DNA of 14,329 nucleotides from assembly GCA_040289575.1 (NCBI GenBank), contig PSLL01000019.1:1-14329 (forward strand), in the 5' to 3' direction. This DNA comes from Candidatus Dadabacteria bacterium. GTDB taxonomy: Bacteria; Desulfobacterota_D; UBA1144; Nemesobacterales; CSP1-2. Shown piece by piece: positions 2,143-14,329 of the stretch. A model generated the notes under the pieces. The model had not been told where the DNA came from. It worked only from the letters and a program-made list of their open reading frames with translations, and did no database searches. Within the stretch, counting starts at the first letter, position 1. Each line of letters starts with the position of its first letter. A program made the translations under genes and the position numbers.

Positions 2143-2535
2143 GTGGAAGTTCAGGCTATCTGGAAAAGGAATTATCAGGTTGAAGTCAGAGCAAGACAGT
2201 TTAGCGTTCCGATTGACGAAGCCCAGGAATTCCATGGAGACGATACAGGAATGATGCCTACAGAGCTTTTTCTCTGCTCTTTGGCTTCGTGCTTCTGCCT
2301 TGCACTTGTGTTTGTCGCCAGGAAGAAAAGAATTGAAATTAAAGATATGCGCGTGAATGTGAAAGGTGAAAAAGACCTTAAAAATTTCCTTTTTTCAAGG
2401 CTTATTGTTGAGATTGATAGCTCTCTTTTGCCCGAAATTCTGCAAGGTATTATACCGCTTGCAAAAAAATACTGTTTTGTAAGCAACACGGTTTCGAAAT
2501 CGTGCCCGATAGAATACACAATAAAGAACATTTAA
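2143..2535 (+). CDS. OsmC/Ohr/YhfA-family thiol redox protein
   Basis: IDE....GDD.G..P.ELFL.SLASC (C50) and KYCFVSNT (C111); GTG start behind GAGGTG. Confidence 0.88.
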   Translation: MEVQAIWKRNYQVEVRARQFSVPIDEAQEFHGDDTGMMPTELFLCSLASCFCLALVFVARKKRIEIKDMRVNVKGEKDLKNFLFSRLIVEIDSSLLPEILQGIIPLAKKYCFVSNTVSKSCPIEYTIKNI

Positions 2536-2547
2536 AGGAGATCAAAG

Positions 2548-3003
2548 TTGCCAATAAAATTCAAGATTAAAAAAAATTATTTTCAGGATGCGCTCCGATT
2601 GATGCGTATATCGAAAATCCTTAGTGAGACGGAAGGGGTAAAGAAAGCCGTTGCTGTAATGGCAACCGAAAAAGCCAAGTTCGCGCTCGAAGATGCCGGT
2701 CTTATGACTGTGGAGATGAAGGATGCCAAAGGAAGCGATTTGGTGATGGTGGTTGAATCCGAGTCCGAAGAGATAGCCAATCAGGCACTCGCAAGAATGG
2801 AAGAGTTAATTTCATCGGGCATCTCCCAAACCAAGAAGGCTCCTCCCGATATACTACATCAGGAGATTCATGCGATAAATATCGGACTTGAGAACTTCAA
2901 GGAAGCCCTTGAAGCCCAAGGCGTAAAAGTAGTCCATGTCAACTGGCAGGTTCCTGCGAAAGGCGACATGAAATTGATAAATATTTTAAAGAAGATGTAT
3001 TAA
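2548..3003 (+). CDS. Mini-FdrA (AllF-like) protein: N-terminal and C-terminal segments of FdrA joined, without the central CoA-binding/ligase domains
   Basis: N-part IKKNYFQDALRLMRISK.L....GV..A.A.MATE..K..L...GL...DL.MVV resembles the FdrA N-terminus. C-part INIGLENF...L..QGV.VVHVNW..PA.GD..L..IL resembles the FdrA C-terminus. TTG start behind AAGGAG. Confidence 0.75.
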   Translation: MPIKFKIKKNYFQDALRLMRISKILSETEGVKKAVAVMATEKAKFALEDAGLMTVEMKDAKGSDLVMVVESESEEIANQALARMEELISSGISQTKKAPPDILHQEIHAINIGLENFKEALEAQGVKVVHVNWQVPAKGDMKLINILKKMY

Positions 3004-3004
3004 A

Positions 3005-3571
3005 ATGAGCATACGCAATCCCGAAAGGTTAAAAGAGGTTCTTTCAAATCCCAAGTGTCTCGCAAGGGCTTTTAGTAGGCATACATACGGAATGATTGCT
3101 TGGGTGGATTTGTTTGGAGGAAAGCTAAAATCATTTCGTGACATCGAAACAAAACTCGTTGTCTCCCGAATAATTGCCGACAATGCAAAGCACGCAAAGT
3201 TCTTCTGGGACAGAGCTAAAGAACTGGGTGAAAAACCGGAAACCTACAGACCTCCACAGATTGGGCAGAAGATTTATGACATACTTGAATCATACGAAGA
3301 CCCATTTGATCAATTTGCCTATGCATGGGGGTCTCTTATACATTTTTCGTCCCTGCTTGACATATACCACAGCGTGGCGGATTCAAAGAGCCGAGCCATA
3401 ATAGAAGAGGTTCAAGGAGACGTCAAGGAACACTTAAAACTTCTGGAGAGATACTTCAAATCAAATGCAGACACACCTGAGAAGAAAAAGCGCGCCGAAG
3501 AGGTAAGAACTTTAGCCCACAGAATCTACACCGATAGAGAAGATGAGGAGATAAAATGGTATGCCTCGTAG
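3005..3571 (+). CDS. Ferritin-like four-helix-bundle protein with degenerate metal ligands
   Basis: Two D-x-x-x-H helices (IIADNAKHAKFFWDRAKELG; VQGDVKEHL) about 80 aa apart, as the two DExxH motifs of ferritin-like proteins are. Starts 1 nt after the upstream stop. Confidence 0.65.
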   Translation: MSIRNPERLKEVLSNPKCLARAFSRHTYGMIAWVDLFGGKLKSFRDIETKLVVSRIIADNAKHAKFFWDRAKELGEKPETYRPPQIGQKIYDILESYEDPFDQFAYAWGSLIHFSSLLDIYHSVADSKSRAIIEEVQGDVKEHLKLLERYFKSNADTPEKKKRAEEVRTLAHRIYTDREDEEIKWYAS

Positions 3572-4406
3572 AGGAATGCCCAGCTTTGAGGAGTTGTTAA
3601 GTCCACTCCCAATCTATTCCATAAAAAACTGGTATTATAAACTCTATTCACTCTTCTTAATGACAATCGGCATGACATCAGATGGAATAAAAACTGGCTA
3701 TACATACGGCTTCGATTCGGGAATGATTATGAACTATGTATATCAGAATACTCCGCACGGGAGATTTTATATTGGAAAGCTTCTAGACAGGGTATTCCTC
3801 AATCAGATTACATGTAAAGCATTCAGGGCAATTAAAGAAATACAGAAAAATGCAATTAAAAATTATTTAGAACAGAGAAATGGAAGTCCCACGTTTATAG
3901 TTGATCTAGCTTCGGGAAAAGCCGACTACATATACGATGCTCTTAGAGAGGCAAACGCCAACGTAAAGGTTCTGCTCCGAGATATTAGCGAGACTGTGCT
4001 CAAAGAAAGCATGGCTATAGCCAGAGGTCTGAACCTAGAGGACAAGGTAAGCTATGAAGTTGCAGATGCACTTGATGTAGAGAGCCTAAAAAAGATTCCC
4101 AAGCCGAATCTTGTAGTTGAAGTCGGTTTATATGGAATCATACACGATGATGAGTTGATACGAAGGCATTTCTTTGAACTTCGGGATATACTTAACCCAG
4201 AGGCGATTCTCTTTAATGTCCAGACATATAATCCACAAATAGAGCTAATTGCGAGGGTACTCAAAAATAGCAATGGTGATCGCTGCGTGTGGCACCTCCG
4301 TCCAGCAGAGGTCGTAATAAATTGGGCAGAAAAGGCAGGATTCAAAAACCCAAAAGTCACCATGGACCCCTATGGCATCTATACAGTGGTTATGATGAGA
4401 AATTAA
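3561..4406 (+). CDS. Class I SAM-dependent methyltransferase-fold protein, YnbC C-terminal (Methyltransf_20)-like, stand-alone
   Basis: SDGIKTG..YGFDSG...NYVYQN.P.G...IGKLLDR.FLN, SAM motif I IVDLASGKADY, LRD, DALD, GLY, PQIELIARVL, D.YGIYTV. Overlaps the upstream gene by 11 nt. Confidence 0.85.
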   Translation: MPRRGMPSFEELLSPLPIYSIKNWYYKLYSLFLMTIGMTSDGIKTGYTYGFDSGMIMNYVYQNTPHGRFYIGKLLDRVFLNQITCKAFRAIKEIQKNAIKNYLEQRNGSPTFIVDLASGKADYIYDALREANANVKVLLRDISETVLKESMAIARGLNLEDKVSYEVADALDVESLKKIPKPNLVVEVGLYGIIHDDELIRRHFFELRDILNPEAILFNVQTYNPQIELIARVLKNSNGDRCVWHLRPAEVVINWAEKAGFKNPKVTMDPYGIYTVVMMRN

Positions 4407-4478
4407 TGCGAATTCATCAAACTCTGAGATTTTTAGGCAATATCAATAAGTCGAGTAAGTTTTATGGGAGGCACTAAA

Positions 4479-5879
4479 TTGAAGAGAGAGAGATTTGTTC
4501 TGGGATGGGAAGGCAATACTGAAGAGCCAACTTTTATAAAAAACGCTCTATCAAATAGGATTAGATCGGTCATGAAAAGCCCACATGGGATGTGGAACTA
4601 CATGACGTACCGTGATGCGATAAGGATATTGGGATGGAACGCAGAAGAGATTTATAAGGAAGGCAGGGTTGACTTAGACCCAAAAGTTTGGGCAGATTTC
4701 GGTTGGATGACGTGCTATGTGGGTCCGCCTAAGAGTGCTGTGAAAGCGATGCGTGAAAAGACAAATGCATCAAATATCAATCCATACTCTCCAGACCTTA
4801 TAAACCCATTGAGAGACGCATGCGCCCGGATAAAGCTTGGACGTGAAAGGAGTAGAGACTTTGAAGTCATAGGAACAGAAGGCGGACAGGCAGGGATTTC
4901 ATACGCACTTCAGACACTTATAGACCCCGGCGATGAGGTGATCATTACCGATCCCGGATATTTTCACTTTGAATCCGCAATCCTGATGGCAAGGGGGGTG
5001 CCCATAAAGATTCCCCTAGGTTCTAAAAATGGATACCGTTTAAACCCGGATGAATTAAAAGGTTATATTACGCCAAAAACAAAGGTGATAATCGTTTGTG
5101 ATCCACTTAACCCTTTCGGTACCGTGCAGACAAAAGACGAGTTGATTGCCCTCATTGAGATTGCAAGAAAAGGCAACATCATAATAATCGACGACATTAC
5201 ACACAACACTCAGAGAATTGACCCTAATTCTCAGCACTATCCTATGAGCTCCCTCTGGAAGGAGATAAACACAGACAATGTGATCTCAGTCTTCAGCGTC
5301 TCCCATGGATACGGAATGGCCGGTGTTCGCATTGGCTTTCTTGCGGGTCACACGGAGATTATGAGGGCATGCCTAATATCAAAAACCTCCTTGACAAGGC
5401 TTAATACCAATCTCATCTCTCAATATGGGGCGCTGGCGGCCTTAAATGACGAGGATTATATTAAGAAATCAGAGGAAATAATAAGGCGTAACTATAGTCA
5501 CATAAGAGAAACGATAAGCCAAATCAAAGACCTGTTCATTCCAGTTGAACCCAAATATGGCTTTTCCGTAGTTGTAGACGTTTCCAATACGGGCACAACA
5601 GCACAGGAATTGACCATTGCCCTTTTTAAACACCGCGTAGCCGTATATCCGGGAGACGGATTGGGCAACGTTGGCGCGACTGAATACATCAGGCTCAATA
5701 TCTCCCGCCCCGACATCTGGGCATTTGGACACCTCCGTAATATGCTCCCCCTGGCAATTGAAGAGGCAAGATCTGGGATCTATCGCAAGGGTGTCATACA
5801 ATTTTTTAGAGAAAAGAAGACAGAGCGGGCGGAGAGAATCATACAGAAGATGAAAGAGATACATTTGGCAGATGAATGA
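4479..5879 (+). CDS. Fold-type I aminotransferase class I/II-like enzyme with His replacing the PLP-binding Lys
   Basis: PGDEVIITDPGY, DPLNPFG, DDITH, FSVSHGYGMAGVRIG (canonical S-x-S-K-x-x-G-M-x-G-x-R-x-G) and YIRLNIS. Start probably TTG 4479 behind GGAGG (4467-4471); ATG 4464 is an in-frame alternative. Confidence 0.85.
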   Translation: MKRERFVLGWEGNTEEPTFIKNALSNRIRSVMKSPHGMWNYMTYRDAIRILGWNAEEIYKEGRVDLDPKVWADFGWMTCYVGPPKSAVKAMREKTNASNINPYSPDLINPLRDACARIKLGRERSRDFEVIGTEGGQAGISYALQTLIDPGDEVIITDPGYFHFESAILMARGVPIKIPLGSKNGYRLNPDELKGYITPKTKVIIVCDPLNPFGTVQTKDELIALIEIARKGNIIIIDDITHNTQRIDPNSQHYPMSSLWKEINTDNVISVFSVSHGYGMAGVRIGFLAGHTEIMRACLISKTSLTRLNTNLISQYGALAALNDEDYIKKSEEIIRRNYSHIRETISQIKDLFIPVEPKYGFSVVVDVSNTGTTAQELTIALFKHRVAVYPGDGLGNVGATEYIRLNISRPDIWAFGHLRNMLPLAIEEARSGIYRKGVIQFFREKKTERAERIIQKMKEIHLADE

Positions 5880-7119
5880 TATTGACGGCGTTTCTATTGA
5901 CAGACTTGTCGAGGAGTACGGCTCACCCATCTTTACCGTTTCCGCAAAGACGCTTAGAAATAATATCCGTGCATTCAAAGAGGAATTCTCTAAAAGGTAT
6001 CCAAAAGTAGTAATCGCCTACTCGTATAAAACCAACTGCCTCCTTGGCATACTCAGCATAATACACAGAGATGGGGTCTGGGCTGATGTGGCTTCAGGTT
6101 TTGAATACAATCTGGCAAGGGCAATTGGCGTGCCTGGAGAATCAATTGTCTTCAATGGCCCATACAAAAAGAAAGAGGAACTCAGGAAAGCCGTTAAGGA
6201 AGGGGCCTTAATAAATATAGACCATATTGACGAACTCAAACTGCTAGAGGAGATTGCCCACGAACTTCATGGAACAATTGATATAGGGATTAGGATTAAT
6301 GCAGATGTCGGGATTCATCAGTTGTCAGATAGATTTGGCTTTAACCTCGAATCTGGCGAGGCGATTCAAATTGTAGAGATGTGTACCGGGAAGAAATTGC
6401 TCAGGATAGTAGGGCTTCATATTCACCTTACGAGTTACATAATTGAACCTGATAGTTCAGAAAATACCTCTCCTGCAAAGAGAGTAAAACTCATCTGGCC
6501 CAAGAGTTCAGATATGTACAGAGAGGCCTCAAAAAAGGTTGTAGGACTCGTAGAGGAAATCAGAGAAAAGTTTGGAGTAAATGTAAAGTATGTAGATATA
6601 GGAGGCGGTTTTCCAGGTGTTGACTCTTTGGCTCCTTATGTTGGGGCGATAGTTGAACCGATTCTTGAGAGGTTTAGTCAGTATTTACCAACTCTCATCT
6701 TAGAGCCTGGAAGAGCAATTGTAAGGGATGCTATGCATCTTATAACGACTGTTGTCGGTGTAAAGGAGTTTCCAAGCGGAGAAAGGAGAATAATAATTGA
6801 TGCCGGAATCAATCTTCTTCCCACATCACTCTGGAGGTGGCAGGAGATAGAACCGGTATCAAAAGCAGAAGGCGGTTTAAAGGAGACTACGGTCTATGGA
6901 CCACTCTGCCTTCAGACGGACATAATATCAAGGGCAAAACTCCCGCGACTTAAATCGGGAGATAAACTCGTCATAAAAAACGTTGGGGCATACAATATTT
7001 CTCAATCCAGTTCATTTATATTCCCTCGCCCCTCAGTTTTAATCATAGAGAATAGAGAAGTAAGGATTCTAAAGAGGAATGAGAAGGTCGAGGATGTGTT
7101 CTTATTTGAAAAGGTATAA
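5872..7119 (+). CDS. Fold-type III PLP decarboxylase (Orn/DAP/Arg family; DAP-decarboxylase/MccE-like)
   Basis: YGSP, AYSYKTN (PLP Lys53), FNGPYK, IRIN, RFG, GLHIH, DIGGGF, EPGRAIV, DAG.N, GPLC..TD, GAY. Overlaps the upstream gene by 8 nt. Confidence 0.9.
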   Translation: MNDIDGVSIDRLVEEYGSPIFTVSAKTLRNNIRAFKEEFSKRYPKVVIAYSYKTNCLLGILSIIHRDGVWADVASGFEYNLARAIGVPGESIVFNGPYKKKEELRKAVKEGALINIDHIDELKLLEEIAHELHGTIDIGIRINADVGIHQLSDRFGFNLESGEAIQIVEMCTGKKLLRIVGLHIHLTSYIIEPDSSENTSPAKRVKLIWPKSSDMYREASKKVVGLVEEIREKFGVNVKYVDIGGGFPGVDSLAPYVGAIVEPILERFSQYLPTLILEPGRAIVRDAMHLITTVVGVKEFPSGERRIIIDAGINLLPTSLWRWQEIEPVSKAEGGLKETTVYGPLCLQTDIISRAKLPRLKSGDKLVIKNVGAYNISQSSSFIFPRPSVLIIENREVRILKRNEKVEDVFLFEKV

Positions 7120-7154
7120 TGTTAGGCTACTCCAGCATATAGGGAGGTTTGACT

Positions 7155-7206
7155 AAATATGTGTCATATTTTGTTTGAATATATCCATGAGTTTGGTAAA
7201 ATTCAT
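7155..7206 (+). promoter_or_regulatory. Putative sigma70 promoter with palindromic operator-like sites
   Basis: TTGAAT (7175-7180), 16-nt spacer, extended -10 TGgTAAAAT (7194-7202). Inverted repeat AAATATG-tgt-CATATTT (7155-7171). Imperfect inverted repeat ATGAGTTT / AAATTCAT (7187-7206) spans the -10. Confidence 0.45.
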
Positions 7207-7233
7207 AAACTTTAAAATAAATCGGGAGTCTAT

Positions 7234-9060
7234 ATGAACTACAAAAAAATAAAGTTAAACCTGATATTTTGGACTCTTATAATTGCCGTATTGGCTTCTC
7301 TTATCTCATGCAGTGTCGGAGATAACACTCCCCCTGCACCTATTGAGGATTTGAGCTTAAATCCTCCGCCTAGGCAACTTAGTTGGACAGCAACCGGAGA
7401 CAACGGACATTCAGGGACAGCAACAATCTATGACCTACGGTTTTCTCAGATCAGTGCTGAAGATGTAATAAAGAATTTCTCAAGCGCTATACACGTAGAA
7501 AATCTACCAAAACCCGCTCCAGCCGGGACAACGCAGAGCTTTCTTCTCCCGAGGATTGATACTACAGGAACTAAAAACTTTTTCTTTACTCTTGATGTTC
7601 GTGATGAGGTGGGGAACAACTCAGGTCCATCGAATGTTGTTGAGACTCAGACGCCCCTGGTTCCTGTAGAATTTCGGAGCAATGCAACCGGAAGCTGTTT
7701 TGGAGCGGCGGTCAGTAGCGGCGATTTCAACGGCGCTGTAAATAAAAACCTTAACCCATTTAGCCCTTCTGCCACGCCATCTGTTACTCCCAGTAACCGG
7801 ATTGAGGGCATCGCTATTGGTGATCCATGTCTCGGCAGGGTTTATATATTCTTTGGCGGAAACGATCTGTCTGGGGTTCTCGATGCCTCAACCGCAGATG
7901 TAACTATAATCGGCAATGCCAGCGACCGATTTGGGGCTACAGTCACCGGTCTCGGAAATGTTGGCGGCGATACATCGGATGACCTAGCAATAGGAGCTCC
8001 GGAATTCAATAACGGAACGGGCGCGGTTTTTATTATATTTGGCAGCGGCAAATGGAAGCACGGCTCACCCGTAACCATAGACCTTACAAACGGAGCTAAA
8101 CCGAATATCACAATTACAGGGGAAAACGTCGGAGACAAATTTGGAACCTCCATCGCAAAACTAGAAGGCGGAAGCTCAATACCGGTGCTTATAGGCGCGC
8201 CCGGGGCTGACTCTCAAAAAGGCAGAGCCTATTATATCTTCTTGAAGGATATAAATCCAAACACATCTGCTAGCCAGGCCAAAGCCATATTCCTTGGAGA
8301 GTCGGCAGGCAATATGTTCGGTCTTACTCTAGCTAATACGGGTGATTTCAATGGCGATGGTTTCTTTGATTTTGCCGTTGGTGCCCCAGCGGCTGGAAAG
8401 GTATATATATTCTTCGGACAAAAGAACATTGTTGGCCAGGACCTCTCAAAGGATAAGTCCGGCGTAGTGATAATAAGCGGCAGCTCCACAGATGGGTTTG
8501 GCTCCTCTATATCAGGAATCGAGTTTACCATCTCAGGAGGAGGGGATAATATAAGAGGCGATATAAATGGAGATAAAAAGCCTGACTTTATTATCGGTGC
8601 ACCCGGCTCAAATAATAATACAGGTTCTGTTTTTCTCTACTCCGGGGCGGATATAGTCTCTGCTAAGACGAGTGGAATGCCCCCCAATTTTATTGCAGAA
8701 TTTACTGGTACAAATCCAGGAGATAGATTCGGAACCTCCGTCAGCATTCTTGGTGATATAAATCCTCAAATGATCACACGTCAAGAGACAGAGTTTACTG
8801 TACTTCTATTTAATCCTACGAATGCGGATTTTGCAGTGGGCGCCCCGGGGACATCCGGTGGAACGGGAACCGTTTACCTGTTTTTTGGACGCAATAACTT
8901 TCCGAGTACGGTCGGAGCCGCAGGGGCCGATTTAATCCTAAATGGAAACTCTCCAGGAGAGGAATTCGGAACAATAGTAACGGGCACAGGAGACTTCACT
9001 AAAGATTTTATAAACGATTTTGCCACCTCCGGGTCAGGGTTTGTTAGAGAGGAATTCTAG
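7234..9060 (+). CDS. Lipoprotein with FN3-like domain and seven FG-GAP (integrin-alpha beta-propeller) repeats
   Basis: Signal peptide with lipobox LISC (C26). FN3-like segment DNTPPAPIEDL..LSWTA.GD.G..GTA..YDLRFS...RDEVGN.S..SN. Seven FG...GAP...G.VY.FFG-type units, with Ca-loop motifs such as DFNGDGFFD and DINGDKKPD. Confidence 0.88.
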   Translation: MNYKKIKLNLIFWTLIIAVLASLISCSVGDNTPPAPIEDLSLNPPPRQLSWTATGDNGHSGTATIYDLRFSQISAEDVIKNFSSAIHVENLPKPAPAGTTQSFLLPRIDTTGTKNFFFTLDVRDEVGNNSGPSNVVETQTPLVPVEFRSNATGSCFGAAVSSGDFNGAVNKNLNPFSPSATPSVTPSNRIEGIAIGDPCLGRVYIFFGGNDLSGVLDASTADVTIIGNASDRFGATVTGLGNVGGDTSDDLAIGAPEFNNGTGAVFIIFGSGKWKHGSPVTIDLTNGAKPNITITGENVGDKFGTSIAKLEGGSSIPVLIGAPGADSQKGRAYYIFLKDINPNTSASQAKAIFLGESAGNMFGLTLANTGDFNGDGFFDFAVGAPAAGKVYIFFGQKNIVGQDLSKDKSGVVIISGSSTDGFGSSISGIEFTISGGGDNIRGDINGDKKPDFIIGAPGSNNNTGSVFLYSGADIVSAKTSGMPPNFIAEFTGTNPGDRFGTSVSILGDINPQMITRQETEFTVLLFNPTNADFAVGAPGTSGGTGTVYLFFGRNNFPSTVGAAGADLILNGNSPGEEFGTIVTGTGDFTKDFINDFATSGSGFVREEF

Positions 9061-9075
9061 ATTGGGAGGACAGTT

Positions 9076-10434
9076 CTGAAGGAATCGGATTCTGGTTCGG
9101 ATACAAAGATAAAAGGGATAAAAAAACGCCTGTTTCTCAATGCCTCATGGCTCTTCGGGGGAAAAACCCTAGCTGGTATATTTTCTGCCTTCCAGAGCGT
9201 AGTTGTAGCGAGAATCCTTGGGGTAAGCGATTTTGGACTCCTAGCTTTAATAATCGCCTATGTGGATGTACTCAACAACTTCTTTGATTTTAGGGTCTGG
9301 GAGACCGCAACCAAGTATATAGGCACATTCTGGACAAATGGAGAGAGAGAAAAAACCCTCTCTATGATAAAGCTCTCATATACAGTAGATATATCAAGCG
9401 GAATTTTAGCCTTCATTATAGCTGTCATTACGGCAAATATTGTGAGTGTGCATTTAATTCACTCCCCTCAAGCCCATACGCTTATTTGGATTTATGCCTT
9501 TAGTCTTCTTATTGACACAGCAAACCAAACCTCCGATGCGATACTCAGGGTATTTGACAGGTTCAGGCGCATCGCCTTTGTCTCTTCTTTTAGCTATTTA
9601 TTTAGACTCGTTTTAATCTCCATTGTCCTCTACTTAGACACGGGCATAAAAGGGGTGCTATTCTCATATGTGGCGTCAAGTTTTGTGGGATTCTCAATCA
9701 GACTCCTGATCATATCAAAAACCCTACAGGAGAACGGGCTTGAAAGATGGTGGAGATCAAGCCTGAATCTGATCAGGAATCAGTGGAAGGAGATAGCGTG
9801 GTTTCTCGGCAACACAAGCCTTACAGGAACCCTAAAGATGGCAAACGATAACCTCCTAGGCGTCCTTGTGCTCGGATACTATTCTGGAAAAGAAGGAGCC
9901 GCATATTATAAGATCGCAAAGTCGTTTGTAAGAATAATGATACAACTCATAGACCCACTCTACGAGGCTATATATCCGGAGCTTGTAAGGATGTTCAGCG
10001 TAGGGGCTACAGGGGATTTTAGAAGGCTCCTGAATACATCAACAAAAAGCGTGGGCAAAGTTATGATCCCAATTGCCATACTCATCTTAATACTTTCTGA
10101 TTATCTAATAGAGATTATATTTGGAAAGAAATACCTTCCCTCATCAAACACCCTAAGAATAGTGACCATTGCCGTCTTAATCTCACAACTGACCTTCTGG
10201 ACAAGCCCGGCATTACTCGCTTTTGGAAAGGCCGGGCTTAGGAACTTAGTCAACTCAGTTTCTACTGCCGCCTATATTGGATTTCTGTTTCTCCTTGTAC
10301 CAAAATACTCATATATCGGAGCGGCTTGGGCATTCTTAGTAGGCAATGCGATAAGCTCAATAATATCTCTTTGGATTATGAGAAATTCATTAAGGATGGG
10401 AAATAAAGAGAAGCTAAAGGTTCAGGCCACATAG
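9076..10434 (+). CDS. Wzx/MOP-superfamily oligosaccharide flippase (polysaccharide biosynthesis protein), probable CTG start
   Basis: Multiple hydrophobic TM segments, G.Y..A motif, YPEL, IFG..Y. The reading frame continues upstream of the track's GTG 9262 through the Wzx-type N-terminus KRLFLNASWLFGGKTL...ARILGVSDFG. The SD GGAGG (9065-9069) lies 6 nt before in-frame CTG 9076. Confidence 0.85.
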   Translation: MKESDSGSDTKIKGIKKRLFLNASWLFGGKTLAGIFSAFQSVVVARILGVSDFGLLALIIAYVDVLNNFFDFRVWETATKYIGTFWTNGEREKTLSMIKLSYTVDISSGILAFIIAVITANIVSVHLIHSPQAHTLIWIYAFSLLIDTANQTSDAILRVFDRFRRIAFVSSFSYLFRLVLISIVLYLDTGIKGVLFSYVASSFVGFSIRLLIISKTLQENGLERWWRSSLNLIRNQWKEIAWFLGNTSLTGTLKMANDNLLGVLVLGYYSGKEGAAYYKIAKSFVRIMIQLIDPLYEAIYPELVRMFSVGATGDFRRLLNTSTKSVGKVMIPIAILILILSDYLIEIIFGKKYLPSSNTLRIVTIAVLISQLTFWTSPALLAFGKAGLRNLVNSVSTAAYIGFLFLLVPKYSYIGAAWAFLVGNAISSIISLWIMRNSLRMGNKEKLKVQAT

Positions 10435-10452: not shown

Positions 10453-11160
10453 CTACCCGGTCAATCCGCGTTTTTTAACCGTACCTGTATCATCGACTAC
10501 CTGTCCATCTCTAAATGAAACTATCCTCTGAGCATATGAGGCTATATCAGATTCATGAGTAACCATTATTATCGTCTTCCCCCCACTGCTCAACATCTTA
10601 AATATCTCCATTATCTCCATACTCGTTGCACTATCCAAATTCCCTGTAGGCTCATCCGCTAATATTATACTCGGCTCATTTATTATCGCCCTAGCTATTG
10701 CCACCCTCTGCTGCTGACCCCCTGAGAGTTGTGATGGATAATGCCTCTCCCTACCCCCTAATCCCATCATCTCCAGTGCCTCCTGCGCCCGCCTCACCCT
10801 CTTGCCTGACCCAGTCCCATCGTATATCAACGGAAGCTCCACATTCTCTAGTGCCGTCACCCTCCCAAGAAGATTGAAATTCTGAAACACAAACCCTATC
10901 TTCTTATTCCTTATCCGTGCTAGCTCATCTTTGCCCAATGATGAAACATCACTACCCTCAAGAAGGTACCTCCCACTGCTCGGAGTATCAAGACACCCCA
11001 GTATATTCATAAATGTGCTCTTACCTGAGCCTGAAGAGCCCATTATGGAGACAAACTCTCCCTTCTTTATCCTCAGAGACACTCCTCTTAGGGCATGCAC
11101 CTCCACATCTCCCATCTTATATACCTTGTGTATATCCTCTGTAACTATAATGTCTTCCAC
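10453..11160 (-). CDS. MacB/LolD-type ABC transporter ATP-binding protein (stand-alone NBD)
   Basis: Walker [15 protein letters not shown]-loop, [14 protein letters not shown] signature, [11 protein letters not shown]alker B, VTH H-loop. Start probably GTG 11160 behind GAGG, just after the adaptor stop; the track start of 11226 overlaps the upstream gene. Confidence 0.95.
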
Positions 11161-11164
11161 GGTA

Positions 11165-12319
11165 TTAAAACCTCTGCGGCTGTGGGAGAGGCCCAAGTGG
11201 CTGAGAACCCGATGTGTCTCTTCCAATGGCTTCTATAATTACCTCTTCTCCCTCCTTGAGGCTTCCATCGAGCACCTCTGTAAATCTATCATCGCTTATT
11301 CCAGGCTTAATCGGAATGGGCCTGATTACTCCGCCTCGCAATGGAATCCAAACAACTGAAGGGCTGTCTAAGTCTATTGATTTTTGTTCAATCTTGGCAG
11401 AGGGCGGAGGAATAAATCTCAGAGCCGCCCTCGGAACCCTCAGCACATCTTCTCTATGGGCTACGAGAATCTTTACATCTGCCGTCATTCCGGGCTTTAG
11501 TTTGAGTTCATGGTTATCTACGGACAATACAACATCATAAGTTACAACATTCTGTGTAGTAATAGGGGAGTTCCTTATCTGAGAGACCCTACCCCTGAAC
11601 GTTTCATTAGGATAGGCGTCTACCGTGAATGAACCTTCCTGCCCTTCTTTTATCTTCCCAATATCGGCCTCGCTCACATACGCATCAAGCTGCATATTGG
11701 CCAGGTCCTCGGCTATGAGAAAAGGTGCAGGGGATTGGTGTCCCAGAGCAATTGTTTGGCCGACGTTTATATCCTTTGAAATTACGACCCCATCAATAGG
11801 CGAGCGAATGGTTGTTGAGTCGAGATTTGATTTTGCCGTGTCAAACTCCGCCCTTGCGCTCTCAAGGGTGGCGGCCGCGGATGAAAATTTGGCTTTGGAA
11901 TCATCGTACTCCTGTTTAGGAATCAATCTCTTTTTGTACAACTCCTCATCTGCGTCCATTATCCTCTTCGCAAGCTCATAATCAAGCTGGGCCTTCTTTA
12001 AATCGGCTTCGGTCTGAGTCAGTTTGGCTCTAAAGGGTGCGGGATCTATCTGGGCAAGTGGATCTCCTTTTTTTACCCTTGAATTAAAATCCACGTACAC
12101 ACTCTCTACAGTCCCCGAGATCTGATTCCCGATCTCTACCGCATTGATAGGGTTTATAGTTCCCGTCGCGCTGACATAGGATGATATGTCGCCTCTGTCA
12201 ACCTTCGCGGTTTTGTAAACTATTTCTCCGCTCCCTTTTCGGAAAGAGGAAAATACCAGTATAGCAATACCAATGAGAATAACTATAAACGCCAAAACGA
12301 TTCTTTTATTCCTTATCAC
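11165..12319 (-). CDS. MacA-like efflux periplasmic adaptor (membrane fusion protein)
   Basis: N-terminal TM anchor, SATGTI.P...VEIG.QISG.V..V.VDFN..VKKGD.LAQID, alpha-hairpin, [18 protein letters not shown]...FTVDAYP, LKPGMTA. GTGA overlap with the TolC-family gene. Confidence 0.93.
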
Positions 12320-13542
12320 TCTATCTTCTCTCCTATGACCCTTTCCAACCTCGCAACGGCTATTTTGTAGTTATATATAGCCTGAATACGGTTCGCGTTT
12401 GTAGAAGCCAAGAGTGCCTGGGCTTCCGAAAGCTCAACCGCCGACCCCGTGCCGAGGCGGTATCTTTCTTGAGCCAGTTCGGAGTTCTCCTCGGCAGAAA
12501 TCTCCGAAGTCTCAGTCACCTCAACACTTTCTTCCGCAAACTTAAGATTCATATATAACTGCTTTACCTCAGACACTATTTCTGCTTCCATTGATTCAAT
12601 CTCGGCACGGGAGTGCTCGAGCTTCGCCCTCGATTCATTTACCTCAGACAGCCTCGAGAACCCTTGAAATAGAAAAAATCTGATCCCAATGCCTGCTATA
12701 AAATCCGGACCCGTTGCGCCTGCCCCTTCAAATCTGTATGCGACCCTTCCTATAATCGTTGGATAGAAGGCATCTTTTGAAGCCGCTAACTCTGCTTTTG
12801 ACGCTATCTCCTTGGCTCTGAGGCTCTTTAGCTGAGGATTTAACTCAAGGGCTTTGCTTATTGCGCTATCTAAGTTCACGTCCACTCTTTTATATTCTAA
12901 CATATCCTCAAGCTCATAATTGAAATCACCCTTGATGCCCATTACTTTTGCCAGGTCTATTCTTGCCATCTCCAGATTGTTTCTCGCAGTAATGAGATTA
13001 AGCTTCGCATTTCCCAAATTTACTCTTGCCTTCGTAACATCAATCTTTGATACCCTACCGGCTTTGAAAAAGCCCTCTGTCTGCTCGAGGATTTTTTCAT
13101 TCTGCGTAACCGCTTTCTCCATAGCCTCCACAACGCGCTTTTGGGCAAGAGCCGTATAGTAGGCCACCTCTGTGTTTAGAATTACATCATCGCGTGCCTG
13201 CTCCCTATCAAACTCCGCTGATTTCAGATTCGCCTTGCTCGCTTTAACCAGATTCGGCGTCCGCCAGAAATCCCATATAAGCTGGTCTGCAAATATCCCC
13301 GATTCCCTTTCAACAAAAGGCAATATAAACTTGAATTGAACCTGTGGATAATAATTCGACTCTGCCCCCCTTACCCTTGCCTTCATAATGTCAATCGATG
13401 CACCTGATGCCCTTAAGTCCGGATTGTTTTCCAATGCAATCTTAACGGCTTCATCTAGAGATAACGTCTTTGCCCGTTCTTGGGCAAAAGCAGAAAGGCC
13501 AAGATGGATTAATAAGATTAGCATCATCCATAGTGATTTCAT
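12316..13542 (-). CDS. TolC-family outer membrane efflux protein
   Basis: Signal peptide (..LSAFA), LSLDEAV..AL.NNP.L, YYP, two OEP repeats, RY..G....VEL..AQ. SD GGGAGGT upstream. Confidence 0.92.
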   Translation of the reverse strand: MKSLWMMLILLIHLGLSAFAQERAKTLSLDEAVKIALENNPDLRASGASIDIMKARVRGAESNYYPQVQFKFILPFVERESGIFADQLIWDFWRTPNLVKASKANLKSAEFDREQARDDVILNTEVAYYTALAQKRVVEAMEKAVTQNEKILEQTEGFFKAGRVSKIDVTKARVNLGNAKLNLITARNNLEMARIDLAKVMGIKGDFNYELEDMLEYKRVDVNLDSAISKALELNPQLKSLRAKEIASKAELAASKDAFYPTIIGRVAYRFEGAGATGPDFIAGIGIRFFLFQGFSRLSEVNESRAKLEHSRAEIESMEAEIVSEVKQLYMNLKFAEESVEVTETSEISAEENSELAQERYRLGTGSAVELSEAQALLASTNANRIQAIYNYKIAVARLERVIGEKIE

Positions 13543-13652: not shown

Positions 13653-14327
13653 CTACAATCTGCTATTACTTTTATTTTTTGCCAATCTAACGGCTACACT
13701 TATGGCGGAGATCATGCTCGATGGATTTGCCTTTCCCTTCCATGCAATATCATAGGCCGTACCATGATCCGGAGAGGTCCTTATAATAGGAAGACCGAGC
13801 GTTACGTTTACTCCATCGTCAAATGAGACCATTTTAAACGGAATCAATCCCTGGTCATGATACATCGCAATAACCGCATCCCAATTCCCCTGTGCGGCAT
13901 AGTAAAACAACGTATCCGCAGGGACCGGCCCCACAACGTCTATTCCCCTTTCTCTAGCCTTTTGAATTGCGGGGATAATATGAAGCCCTTCTTCATCTCC
14001 GAACGCCCCAGTCTCCCCTGCATGTGGGTTCAATGCGGAGACGACTATCCTAGGCTCCGGTATTCGGAAAAGCTCAATCAAGGACTCGTGCGTAAGTTCA
14101 ATTGTAGAGAGGATCTTCTCTTCGTTAATTAACCGAGGAACCTCAGATAAGGCACAATGGATTGTGACGAGTACAACCCGAAATTTCCCACCTTCAAACA
14201 TCATCGCTACCCTTTTTGCACCTGTAAGTTCCTGAAGCATCTCGGTGTGTCCGGGATACTTCGCTCCAGCAAGGTGGATTGATTCTTTGCTTATTGGAGC
14301 AGTAACAATGGCCGCGATTTTCCCCTC
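13653..14327 (-). CDS. pdxA: 4-hydroxythreonine-4-phosphate dehydrogenase PdxA (partial; 5' end beyond the window)
   Basis: The frame stays open beyond the track's Met to the window edge: IVTAPISKE...YPGHTEML, VTIH, ALNPHAGE.G.FG.EE, GP.PADT.F, AMYHDQGLIP.K, NVTLGLPIIRTSPDHGTA.DIA.KG.A. PdxA versus PdxA2 cannot be resolved here. Confidence 0.93.
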   Translation of the reverse strand, partial: EGKIAAIVTAPISKESIHLAGAKYPGHTEMLQELTGAKRVAMMFEGGKFRVVLVTIHCALSEVPRLINEEKILSTIELTHESLIELFRIPEPRIVVSALNPHAGETGAFGDEEGLHIIPAIQKARERGIDVVGPVPADTLFYYAAQGNWDAVIAMYHDQGLIPFKMVSFDDGVNVTLGLPIIRTSPDHGTAYDIAWKGKANPSSMISAISVAVRLAKNKSNSRL

Positions 14328-14329
14328 TA

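Follow-up and report, generated by a model that had tools for sequence, protein, structure and literature searches.

A conserved class I aminotransferase-fold family with histidine at the Schiff-base lysine position, encoded in the tail of a Nit1C-type operon

The locus and its genes

The DNA analysed here, a 14,329-nucleotide stretch of a Candidatus Dadabacteria contig that we call the window, carries the tail of a Nit1C-type operon, and within it a gene for a class I aminotransferase-fold protein in which histidine occupies the position of the Schiff-base lysine (Table 1). The open reading frame of this gene (the His gene) spans 4464-5879 and encodes 471 residues from ATG 4464; judging by a GGAGG followed 8 bases on by TTG, the TTG at 4479 is the likelier start. 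Residue numbers follow the 471-residue frame, from which 5 is subtracted for the TTG start.

Table 1. Features of the operon tail and of the His gene (window coordinates; residue numbers in the 471-residue frame)
Feature	Positions	Strand	Basis or remark
OsmC-like gene, first of the operon tail in the window	2143..2535	+	PF02566; in 47/70 His loci
Short FdrA-N-like gene	2548..3003	+	PRK06091 81.8 bits, under cut-off; in 45/70 His loci
Putative ferritin-like gene, 188 aa, conserved	3005..3571	+	No Pfam or NCBIfam match; in 48/70 His loci
Methyltransf_20 SAM methyltransferase gene	3561..4406	+	PF12147 181 bits; in 63/70 His loci
His-type class I aminotransferase-fold gene	4479..5879	+	466 aa from TTG 4479; open reading frame, PF00155, AlphaFold2, Foldseek
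D244-I-T-H247: pyridine-N Asp and His replacing the 3'-O Tyr	5193..5204	+	Alignments to 1dju and 4dgt
His281 (CAT) at the Schiff-base Lys position	5304..5306	+	Alignment, conservation, run assemblies
K307-x4-R312-x-N314, helix end and loop facing the partner subunit	5382..5405	+	Conservation; predicted dimer interface
Arg410, alpha-carboxylate-binding Arg (YIRL)	5691..5693	+	1dju alignment; 243/243 matches listed
LysA/FslC-like fold III PLP decarboxylase gene	5872..7119	+	Shares 8 bases with the 3' end of the His gene

The decarboxylase is closest to the N-citrylornithine decarboxylase FslC (7kh2, E 3e-49), has an insert before LIWPK, and keeps its PLP lysine in 45 of 46 cases by motif. It lacks the distal-site motifs of diaminopimelate (DAP) decarboxylase, with LPTSxW and CLQTD against MRPAMY and CESSD in 1twi, and we therefore set aside a scheme in which lanthionine or cystathionine is decarboxylated through a DAP-like site. 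A second LysA-like gene of the same genome, on contig C22, has 27% identity to the decarboxylase orthologue at locus L045. For the protein of 3005-3571, structural look-alikes in the ESM Atlas score 0.88-0.93 and are mostly unnamed, and the ferritin and rubrerythrin families found on a minority of their members suggest a ferritin-like fold.

In the window the operon tail stands behind an unrelated MORN-repeat gene, itself accompanied by a YdjC gene, and the CBS/CysK-like gene that other loci carry is missing. After the operon come an FG-GAP repeat lipoprotein gene and a polysaccharide flippase-like gene (7234-10434). An efflux run on the reverse strand (10453-13542) encodes an outer-membrane efflux protein, a HlyD-type adaptor and an ABC ATPase, with no permease reading frame after the ATPase in that run; PdxA lies upstream of it at 13653-14329.

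Histidine in place of the Schiff-base lysine

The Schiff-base lysine is a textbook invariant of class I aminotransferases. Translation of 5295-5336 gives SVSHGYGMAGVRIG, in which 5304-5306 is CAT, and phmmer pairs this segment with GFSKTFAMTGWRLG of 1dju, the P. horikoshii aromatic aminotransferase (E 1e-34). In this alignment His281 occupies the lysine position, as a sequence-only reading of the window had proposed.

Word-index searches were run with three queries, the window protein, its His-type relative P0122 and its Lys-type relative P0273, from which we used the best 120 of 1280, 120 of 1434 and 120 of 502 matches, respectively; one further, exhaustive search supplied its best 150 matches. 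The resulting sets are defined by their queries, the second and third of which were picked with their residue already known. The His-side set of 243 sequences comprises the window set of 120 (the window protein and 119 others), the P0122 set of 121 and two divergent members, P0123 and P0127. Histidine stands at position 281 in 243 of 243 of these listed matches; the window search alone gives 120 of 120, its own protein included, among the best 120 of 1280. Source names on the His side are Dadabacteria/Thermodesulfobacteriota and the Thermoleophilia-type actinobacteria Solirubrobacteraceae/Thermoleophilaceae, and the window and P0122 sets share 44-55% identity, about 50%, among the matches listed. 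In the 46 GTDB loci the codon is histidine throughout, as CAC in 27 and CAT in 19. Since the residue is kept in all 243 listed matches and through the switching between CAC and CAT, it is not there by chance. Had the close homologues all carried lysine, the sequence-only reading would have fallen; on the His side they carry histidine. Among 96 rows of a generic outgroup we found 94 lysines, one serine, one tyrosine and no histidine.

For a sequencing error or a decaying pseudogene as the source of the codon we found no sign. The codon is covered by contigs of four out of four public runs with no other letter (two of the runs may be the source of the window DNA, and a third is flagged as near-identical). 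The reading frame is intact, the gene occurs in 52 of 120 genomes of the phylum, and the conservation across the 243 listed homologues together with the agreement of the four run assemblies refutes such an explanation, which we regard as having almost no chance of being right. The sequence-only reading had likewise argued against an error.

The cofactor site

Twelve active-site positions were set in advance: Y108, G140, Y166, N216, P217, D244, H247, S278, S280, H281, R289 and R410. Their roles we take from the aspartate aminotransferase literature, with placement by the 1dju alignment. Eight of the twelve are invariant and all twelve are kept in at least 240 of the 243 His-side matches listed, against 36 invariant columns out of 471 overall. 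The serines and arginine that bind phosphate, the Asn-Pro motif, the pyridine aspartate and the carboxylate arginine, which had been read as retained, are so: S280, R289, N216, P217 and R410 are present in 243 each, S278 in 241 and D244 in 240 of the 243 matches listed. The two divergent members P0123 and P0127 are without the pyridine aspartate. One detail of that reading has to be corrected. It had the tyrosine of the D-E-x-Y motif replaced by threonine; anchored on ISDEVYE of 1dju and ISDEIHS of the PatB-type protein 4dgt, the pyridine aspartate is the second Asp of DDITH, and the residue standing for tyrosine is thus His247, not Thr246. His247 is found in 243 of 243 His-side matches listed.

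Further pocket residues are specific to the His group, namely R312 and Y395 (243 of 243 each) and N314 (241 of 243) among the matches listed. The conserved cysteines are C84 and C303 (239 of 243 each, His-side matches listed), and the four-Cys [2Fe-2S] motif is absent; within this listed set C212 is confined to Dadabacteria and the two divergent sequences. Family-specific N- and C-terminal extensions are conserved in the window set (best 120 of 1280).

Another lysine might take over the covalent role. The candidate is K307, the sole lysine shared by all 243 His-side sequences listed, which lies directly before a loop crossing into the active site of the partner subunit; from there it could form an internal aldimine, making the enzyme covalent after all. 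The same lysine, however, is present in 116 of the 123 Lys-type sister sequences listed, which have their own K281, with arginine in six, as expected for a salt bridge or anion anchor. A weaker objection is that the predicted dimer interface names residues 304-306 and 308-319 and leaves out K307. We consider a covalent role for K307 quite improbable. No other lysine is specific to the His group; by conservation, then, the substitute that could have overturned the sequence-only reading did not turn up. A heterodimer with a Lys-type paralogue was also rejected, as tblastn found no such paralogue in the genome.

Fold and class

The protein scores 125.3 bits against PF00155 (cut-off 19.7), and its AlphaFold2 model has a mean pLDDT of 93.3 and a pTM of 0.92. 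Foldseek returns class I matches (6f5v at E 2e-27; TM 0.72-0.74 by query), as does VIA, with Z up to 40.7 at an rmsd of 2.5 Å over 366 aligned residues, which bears out the class I/II aminotransferase fold first read from the letters. The lysine that would complete the description of a class I/II aminotransferase is replaced by histidine in all 243 matches listed. A search of the ESM Atlas with the His protein gave generic aminotransferase clusters only. Against PF01041 (DegT/DnrJ) it scores 27.7-28.3 bits over about 110 residues (cut-off 19.8), within the range of ordinary class I genes (22-43 bits), against 416-459 for two genuine DegT genes that this genome also carries. The protein is class I, not DegT.

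A homodimer model scored 0.88, the best of three controls reaching 0.00, with at least 84% of contacts in common between runs and a pLDDT of 88 or more. The scoring considers the protein partner alone; 20 of 30 solved dimers come up to the mark, as does 1 of 23 single chains. Resemblance to class I dimers of known structure is the probable reason why the model passed.

The best NCBIfam match is PRK06225 (NF004870), at 167.8 bits under a cut-off of 351, with about 26% identity and shared DPGY, DPxNP and [HD]D[IC]T motifs. The resemblance to PRK06225-type aminotransferases noted from the sequence thus stands as to best match and motifs and falls short of the cut-off. The members P0167 (447 bits) and P0207 (593 bits) keep both the lysine, as the sequence-only reading had said, and the tyrosine, and are about 80 residues shorter. 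The GntC cyclodehydratase (NF041364), a class I-fold enzyme of elimination chemistry that carries the lysine, comes second at 161.3 bits against a cut-off of 415; in VIA it is tied with others among the leading matches (Z 39.6, rmsd 2.2 Å, 340 aligned). With class Ib aspartate, aromatic and prephenate aminotransferases (1dju, 1gd9, 1j32, 6f5v) the protein shares the fold and the phosphate, pyridine and carboxylate residues at 19-24% structural identity, but those enzymes have the Schiff-base lysine and D-E-x-Y and lack the N-terminal insert. The PatB/MalY/cystalysin C-S lyases, which likewise combine the class I fold with elimination, share D-x-x-H (DDITH here, SDEIH in 4dgt), but 4dgt keeps its lysine (PTK); in the PatB/MalY family TIGR04350 the protein scores 116.6 bits against a cut-off of 340, with His281 in place of lysine.

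A Lys-type sister group

The Lys-type set of 123 sequences, consisting of the P0273 set and P0125, carries lysine in 123 of 123 matches listed and asparagine at the D244 position in 122. Where the His group has R312, N314 and Y395, these sisters have K312 (121 of 123), H314 (122 of 123) and Y395 in 6 of 123. Their identity to the window set is 40-59%, about 46%, again among the matches listed. The family would comprise two sister types, His/Asp and Lys/Asn, each lacking one canonical residue that the other keeps, and R312/Lys and N314/His switch together. D-x-x-H is also present in 123 of 123 Lys sisters listed and so, by these alignments, is a mark of the whole family rather than of the His group.

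Visualizing the relatedness of the sequences as trees, we found the whole family supported at 99/98 and the Lys group at 98/98, with basal His forks under 80 and three basal groups. In the free tree the Lys type is nested among His lineages with two changes, which would mean a reversion from histidine to lysine, though a single origin of histidine is not rejected (p-AU 0.508). PRK06225 is the nearest outgroup in a quick tree (SH-aLRT 99, long branches flagged); the careful tree has three basal groups.

The sister group sits in unrelated catabolic loci. Its source names include Ensifer (P0292 is Ensifer soli per the source), Pararhizobium, Clostridium and Tessaracoccus, and around its genes (L048-L099; members P0273, P0292 and P0121) we observed GntR, proline racemase, mandelate-racemase-like, DAO-family, B12-binding and glycyl-radical genes. 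The Lys-type sister may be an uncharacterised racemase or lyase annotated as an aminotransferase. One Lys-type member, P0125, has 759 residues, with a C-terminal extension of about 290 that has no Pfam match.

The Nit1C-type operon

In Dadabacteria the His gene belongs to a 20-gene cluster, contiguous with it in genome G089. The cluster opens with amidohydrolase, GNAT, AIRS-like, XRE regulator, AllG, FdrA and carbamate kinase genes, continues with NitB, radical SAM, CoA-disulfide-reductase-like, a small open reading frame, AllH, glycosyltransferase and OsmC, and ends with short FdrA, ferritin-like, methyltransferase, His, CBS/CysK-like and LysA-like genes. The place of the amidohydrolase varies; the Amidohydro_2 protein adjoins the NitB or the GNAT gene. 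In the window genome the operon is split into a front half on contig C81 (2959-16423, L047) and the tail at 2143-7119 of the window. Models TIGR04043 (343.9 bits), TIGR04045 (162.9) and TIGR04049 (349.8) are over cut-off on C81, and in L045 TIGR04044 and TIGR04047 also pass their cut-offs, the genes concerned having orthologues on C81.

The NitB, radical SAM, GNAT and AIRS genes of Nit1C occur together here. The Nit1C cluster (MSMEG_0565-0572) of Podar et al. 2005 (PMC1199592) shares with the window-type operon the NitB, radical SAM, GNAT, AIR-synthase-like and glycosyltransferase families, all over cut-off. The subfamily 1 nitrilase, however, is not among the 20 cluster genes; the window-type operon has instead the amidohydrolase, AllF/G/H, carbamate kinase and the His-gene tail. 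AllG, FdrA (AllF), carbamate kinase and AllH lie inside the operon at 5055-8901 and 14242-15276 of L047. With an amidohydrolase standing for the nitrilase, they suggest carbamoyl-phosphate chemistry. The product of the Nit1C-type operon was unknown when it was described, and the word aminotransferase does not occur in the main text of that paper (PMC1199592).

Among 120 genomes of the phylum, the His gene is found in 52, the decarboxylase in 47, all within those 52, and the radical SAM gene over cut-off in 50, of which 48 are within the 52; overlaps were counted by hand, related genomes do not count as independent cases, and some of the genomes (several) lack parts. At the 70 His loci, many of which end at contig edges, the methyltransferase accompanies the His gene in 63, the decarboxylase in 51 and the CBS/CysK-like gene in 39; the last is missing from 16 of the 51 loci with the decarboxylase, the window included. 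The best named PDB matches of the CysK-like protein are cystathionine beta-synthases. Of 57 Lys loci found, 55 were compared, and none has the methyltransferase, decarboxylase or CBS/CysK-like gene; GntR is present in 15. Metagenome loci were taken as the best 80 of 261 and include none from the actinobacterial His group or of P0123 and P0127. Plasmid searches returned matches of about 30% identity and no family member, the viral contig search no family member, and the RNA look-up lists no RNA holder of the gene.

A non-covalent elimination as the proposed function

Every natural replacement of the Schiff-base lysine by histidine that we found described occurs in a sugar 3-dehydratase from the DegT branch. 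In PMC8987622 these fold type I enzymes, ColD, E1 (AscC/DdhC) and SpnQ, are C3-OH eliminases with a catalytic histidine: PMP forms a Schiff base with the keto sugar, the histidine takes the C4' proton and the 3-OH leaves. The preprint 10.1101/2021.09.04.459008 calls Lys-to-His the hallmark of these dehydratases. The window protein shares with them the fold type and the histidine and differs in branch (PF01041 28 bits against 416-459), in the absence of the four-Cys Fe-S motif of the E1/SpnQ type and in its operon, which, one glycosyltransferase aside, has no NDP-sugar pathway. Since the protein is class I and not DegT, the change from lysine to histidine arose independently of ColD, E1 and SpnQ. 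That part of the earlier proposal of an independent origin of His-type B6 chemistry holds, and its other part, a dehydratase or eliminase activity, rests on analogy and gene context. In the literature searched, which lay largely outside subscription journals, we found neither the family described nor any natural enzyme of class I with this Lys-to-His change.

We regard the replacement as real and the family as a probable His-type B6 enzyme in a new branch, class I, of a kind otherwise known from the DegT sugar 3-dehydratases. The protein probably still functions as an enzyme, with B6 bound non-covalently, and that it is active in this form appears likely. From analogy, the intact site, the PatB-like D-x-x-H, the conserved cations K307, R312 and R415 and the neighbouring genes we infer B6 binding, catalysis, the type of reaction and the class of substrate, and hypothesize that the enzyme uses non-covalently bound B6 for an elimination from a small amino or oxo acid, anionic and probably containing sulfur; to this we give a probability of roughly 0.45.

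In this ColD-like mechanism a homodimeric class I (fold type I) enzyme would bind PLP or PMP without an internal aldimine, with His281 as the acid-base at C4' and C-alpha. Entry would be by direct condensation of an amino acid with free PLP or of an oxo acid with PMP; His281 would then move the proton, the group at the beta position (thiol, sulfite, phosphate or water) would depart, and hydrolysis would release the enamine as oxo acid and ammonia. At the tail of the Nit1C-type operon, the FslC-like decarboxylase next to it and the methyltransferase would act along the same line of metabolites.

Several observations may favour elimination. The D-x-x-H shared with the PatB-type C-S lyase 4dgt would be in keeping with it, as would sulfur-related neighbours in Dadabacteria (CBS/CysK-like, OsmC, CoA-disulfide-reductase-like and DsrE-like genes). 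The genome has seven further class I/II genes, and in the six of them for which the motif was read it is SK or TK, so routine transamination is covered. Against this, the absence of the CBS/CysK-like gene from 16 of 51 decarboxylase loci weakens a tight sulfur link, and the one precedent for histidine is of another branch, DegT, acting on sugars; D-x-x-H is found in the Lys sisters as well, and two divergent His members lack the pyridine aspartate. A DMSP-type route was set aside, as nothing links it specifically. We tentatively hold, at somewhat less than even odds, that the family would represent convergent lysine-free B6 catalysis in class I, set off as His/Asp against its Lys/Asn sisters, with a small sulfur metabolite as product for the Nit1C machinery.

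The protein could instead be a lysine-less transaminase, in which His281 would carry out the 1,3-proton shift on non-covalent PLP/PMP and an amino group would be exchanged between a common donor and an oxo acid or aldehyde particular to the pathway, one example being the amine that the adjacent decarboxylase makes. The top matches, by sequence and by Foldseek alike, are all transaminases, the pyridine Asp244 (240 of 243 listed) and Arg410 (all 243) are kept, and a decarboxylase with an aminotransferase is a common pairing. Engineered aspartate aminotransferase K258H reportedly has catalytic activity, to judge from the title of a 1995 paper (PMID 7819232), but that activity is said to be very low. 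It is hard to see why histidine should be fixed across phyla for a reaction that lysine does better, and His247 stands where transaminases typically have tyrosine. We think a transaminase unlikely. Histidine does not force elimination, because SpnQ can also transaminate, which it does without the reductase, and ColD, after its product is released by hydrolysis, regenerates PMP with glutamate (PMC8987622).

A third reading dispenses with catalysis: the protein would bind B6 or a metabolite and serve the decarboxylase and the CBS/CysK-like enzyme as scaffold, as sensor or as carrier of PLP/PMP, and the histidine would be kept for binding. The loss of the catalytic lysine, the conserved terminal extensions and the translational coupling of the His gene to the decarboxylase are consistent with such a role, and the PDB title of MalY, a relative in fold, describes it as a modulator of gene expression. 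But His281, Arg410, R312, Y395 and N314 are strictly kept (241-243 of 243 listed), which suggests a shaped substrate site, and the genome has no Lys-type family paralogue as a partner, the next matches having 25-30% identity. The B6-binding pseudoenzyme that had been offered as an option is weakened by these invariant residues and now seems quite unlikely.

Significance

The His family and its Lys sister (about 46% identity) form a matched pair in which to ask what histidine chemistry buys and which second-shell changes enable it: Asp/Asn at 244, Arg/Lys at 312, Asn/His at 314 and Tyr395. Recognition of the family would also correct many 'aminotransferase' annotations. The His protein also offers a soluble, assayable way into the Nit1C-type operon.

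At two loci, L119 and L120 (5900-16334), the His gene and the same decarboxylase occur with no Nit1C genes nearby. The neighbourhood there is a different, sulfur-flavoured one, with three OsmC-like genes, a COX1/cbb3-like pair, a CMD protein, an SsuD-like monooxygenase, a UbiE-like methyltransferase and a Cys/Met-metabolism PLP enzyme.
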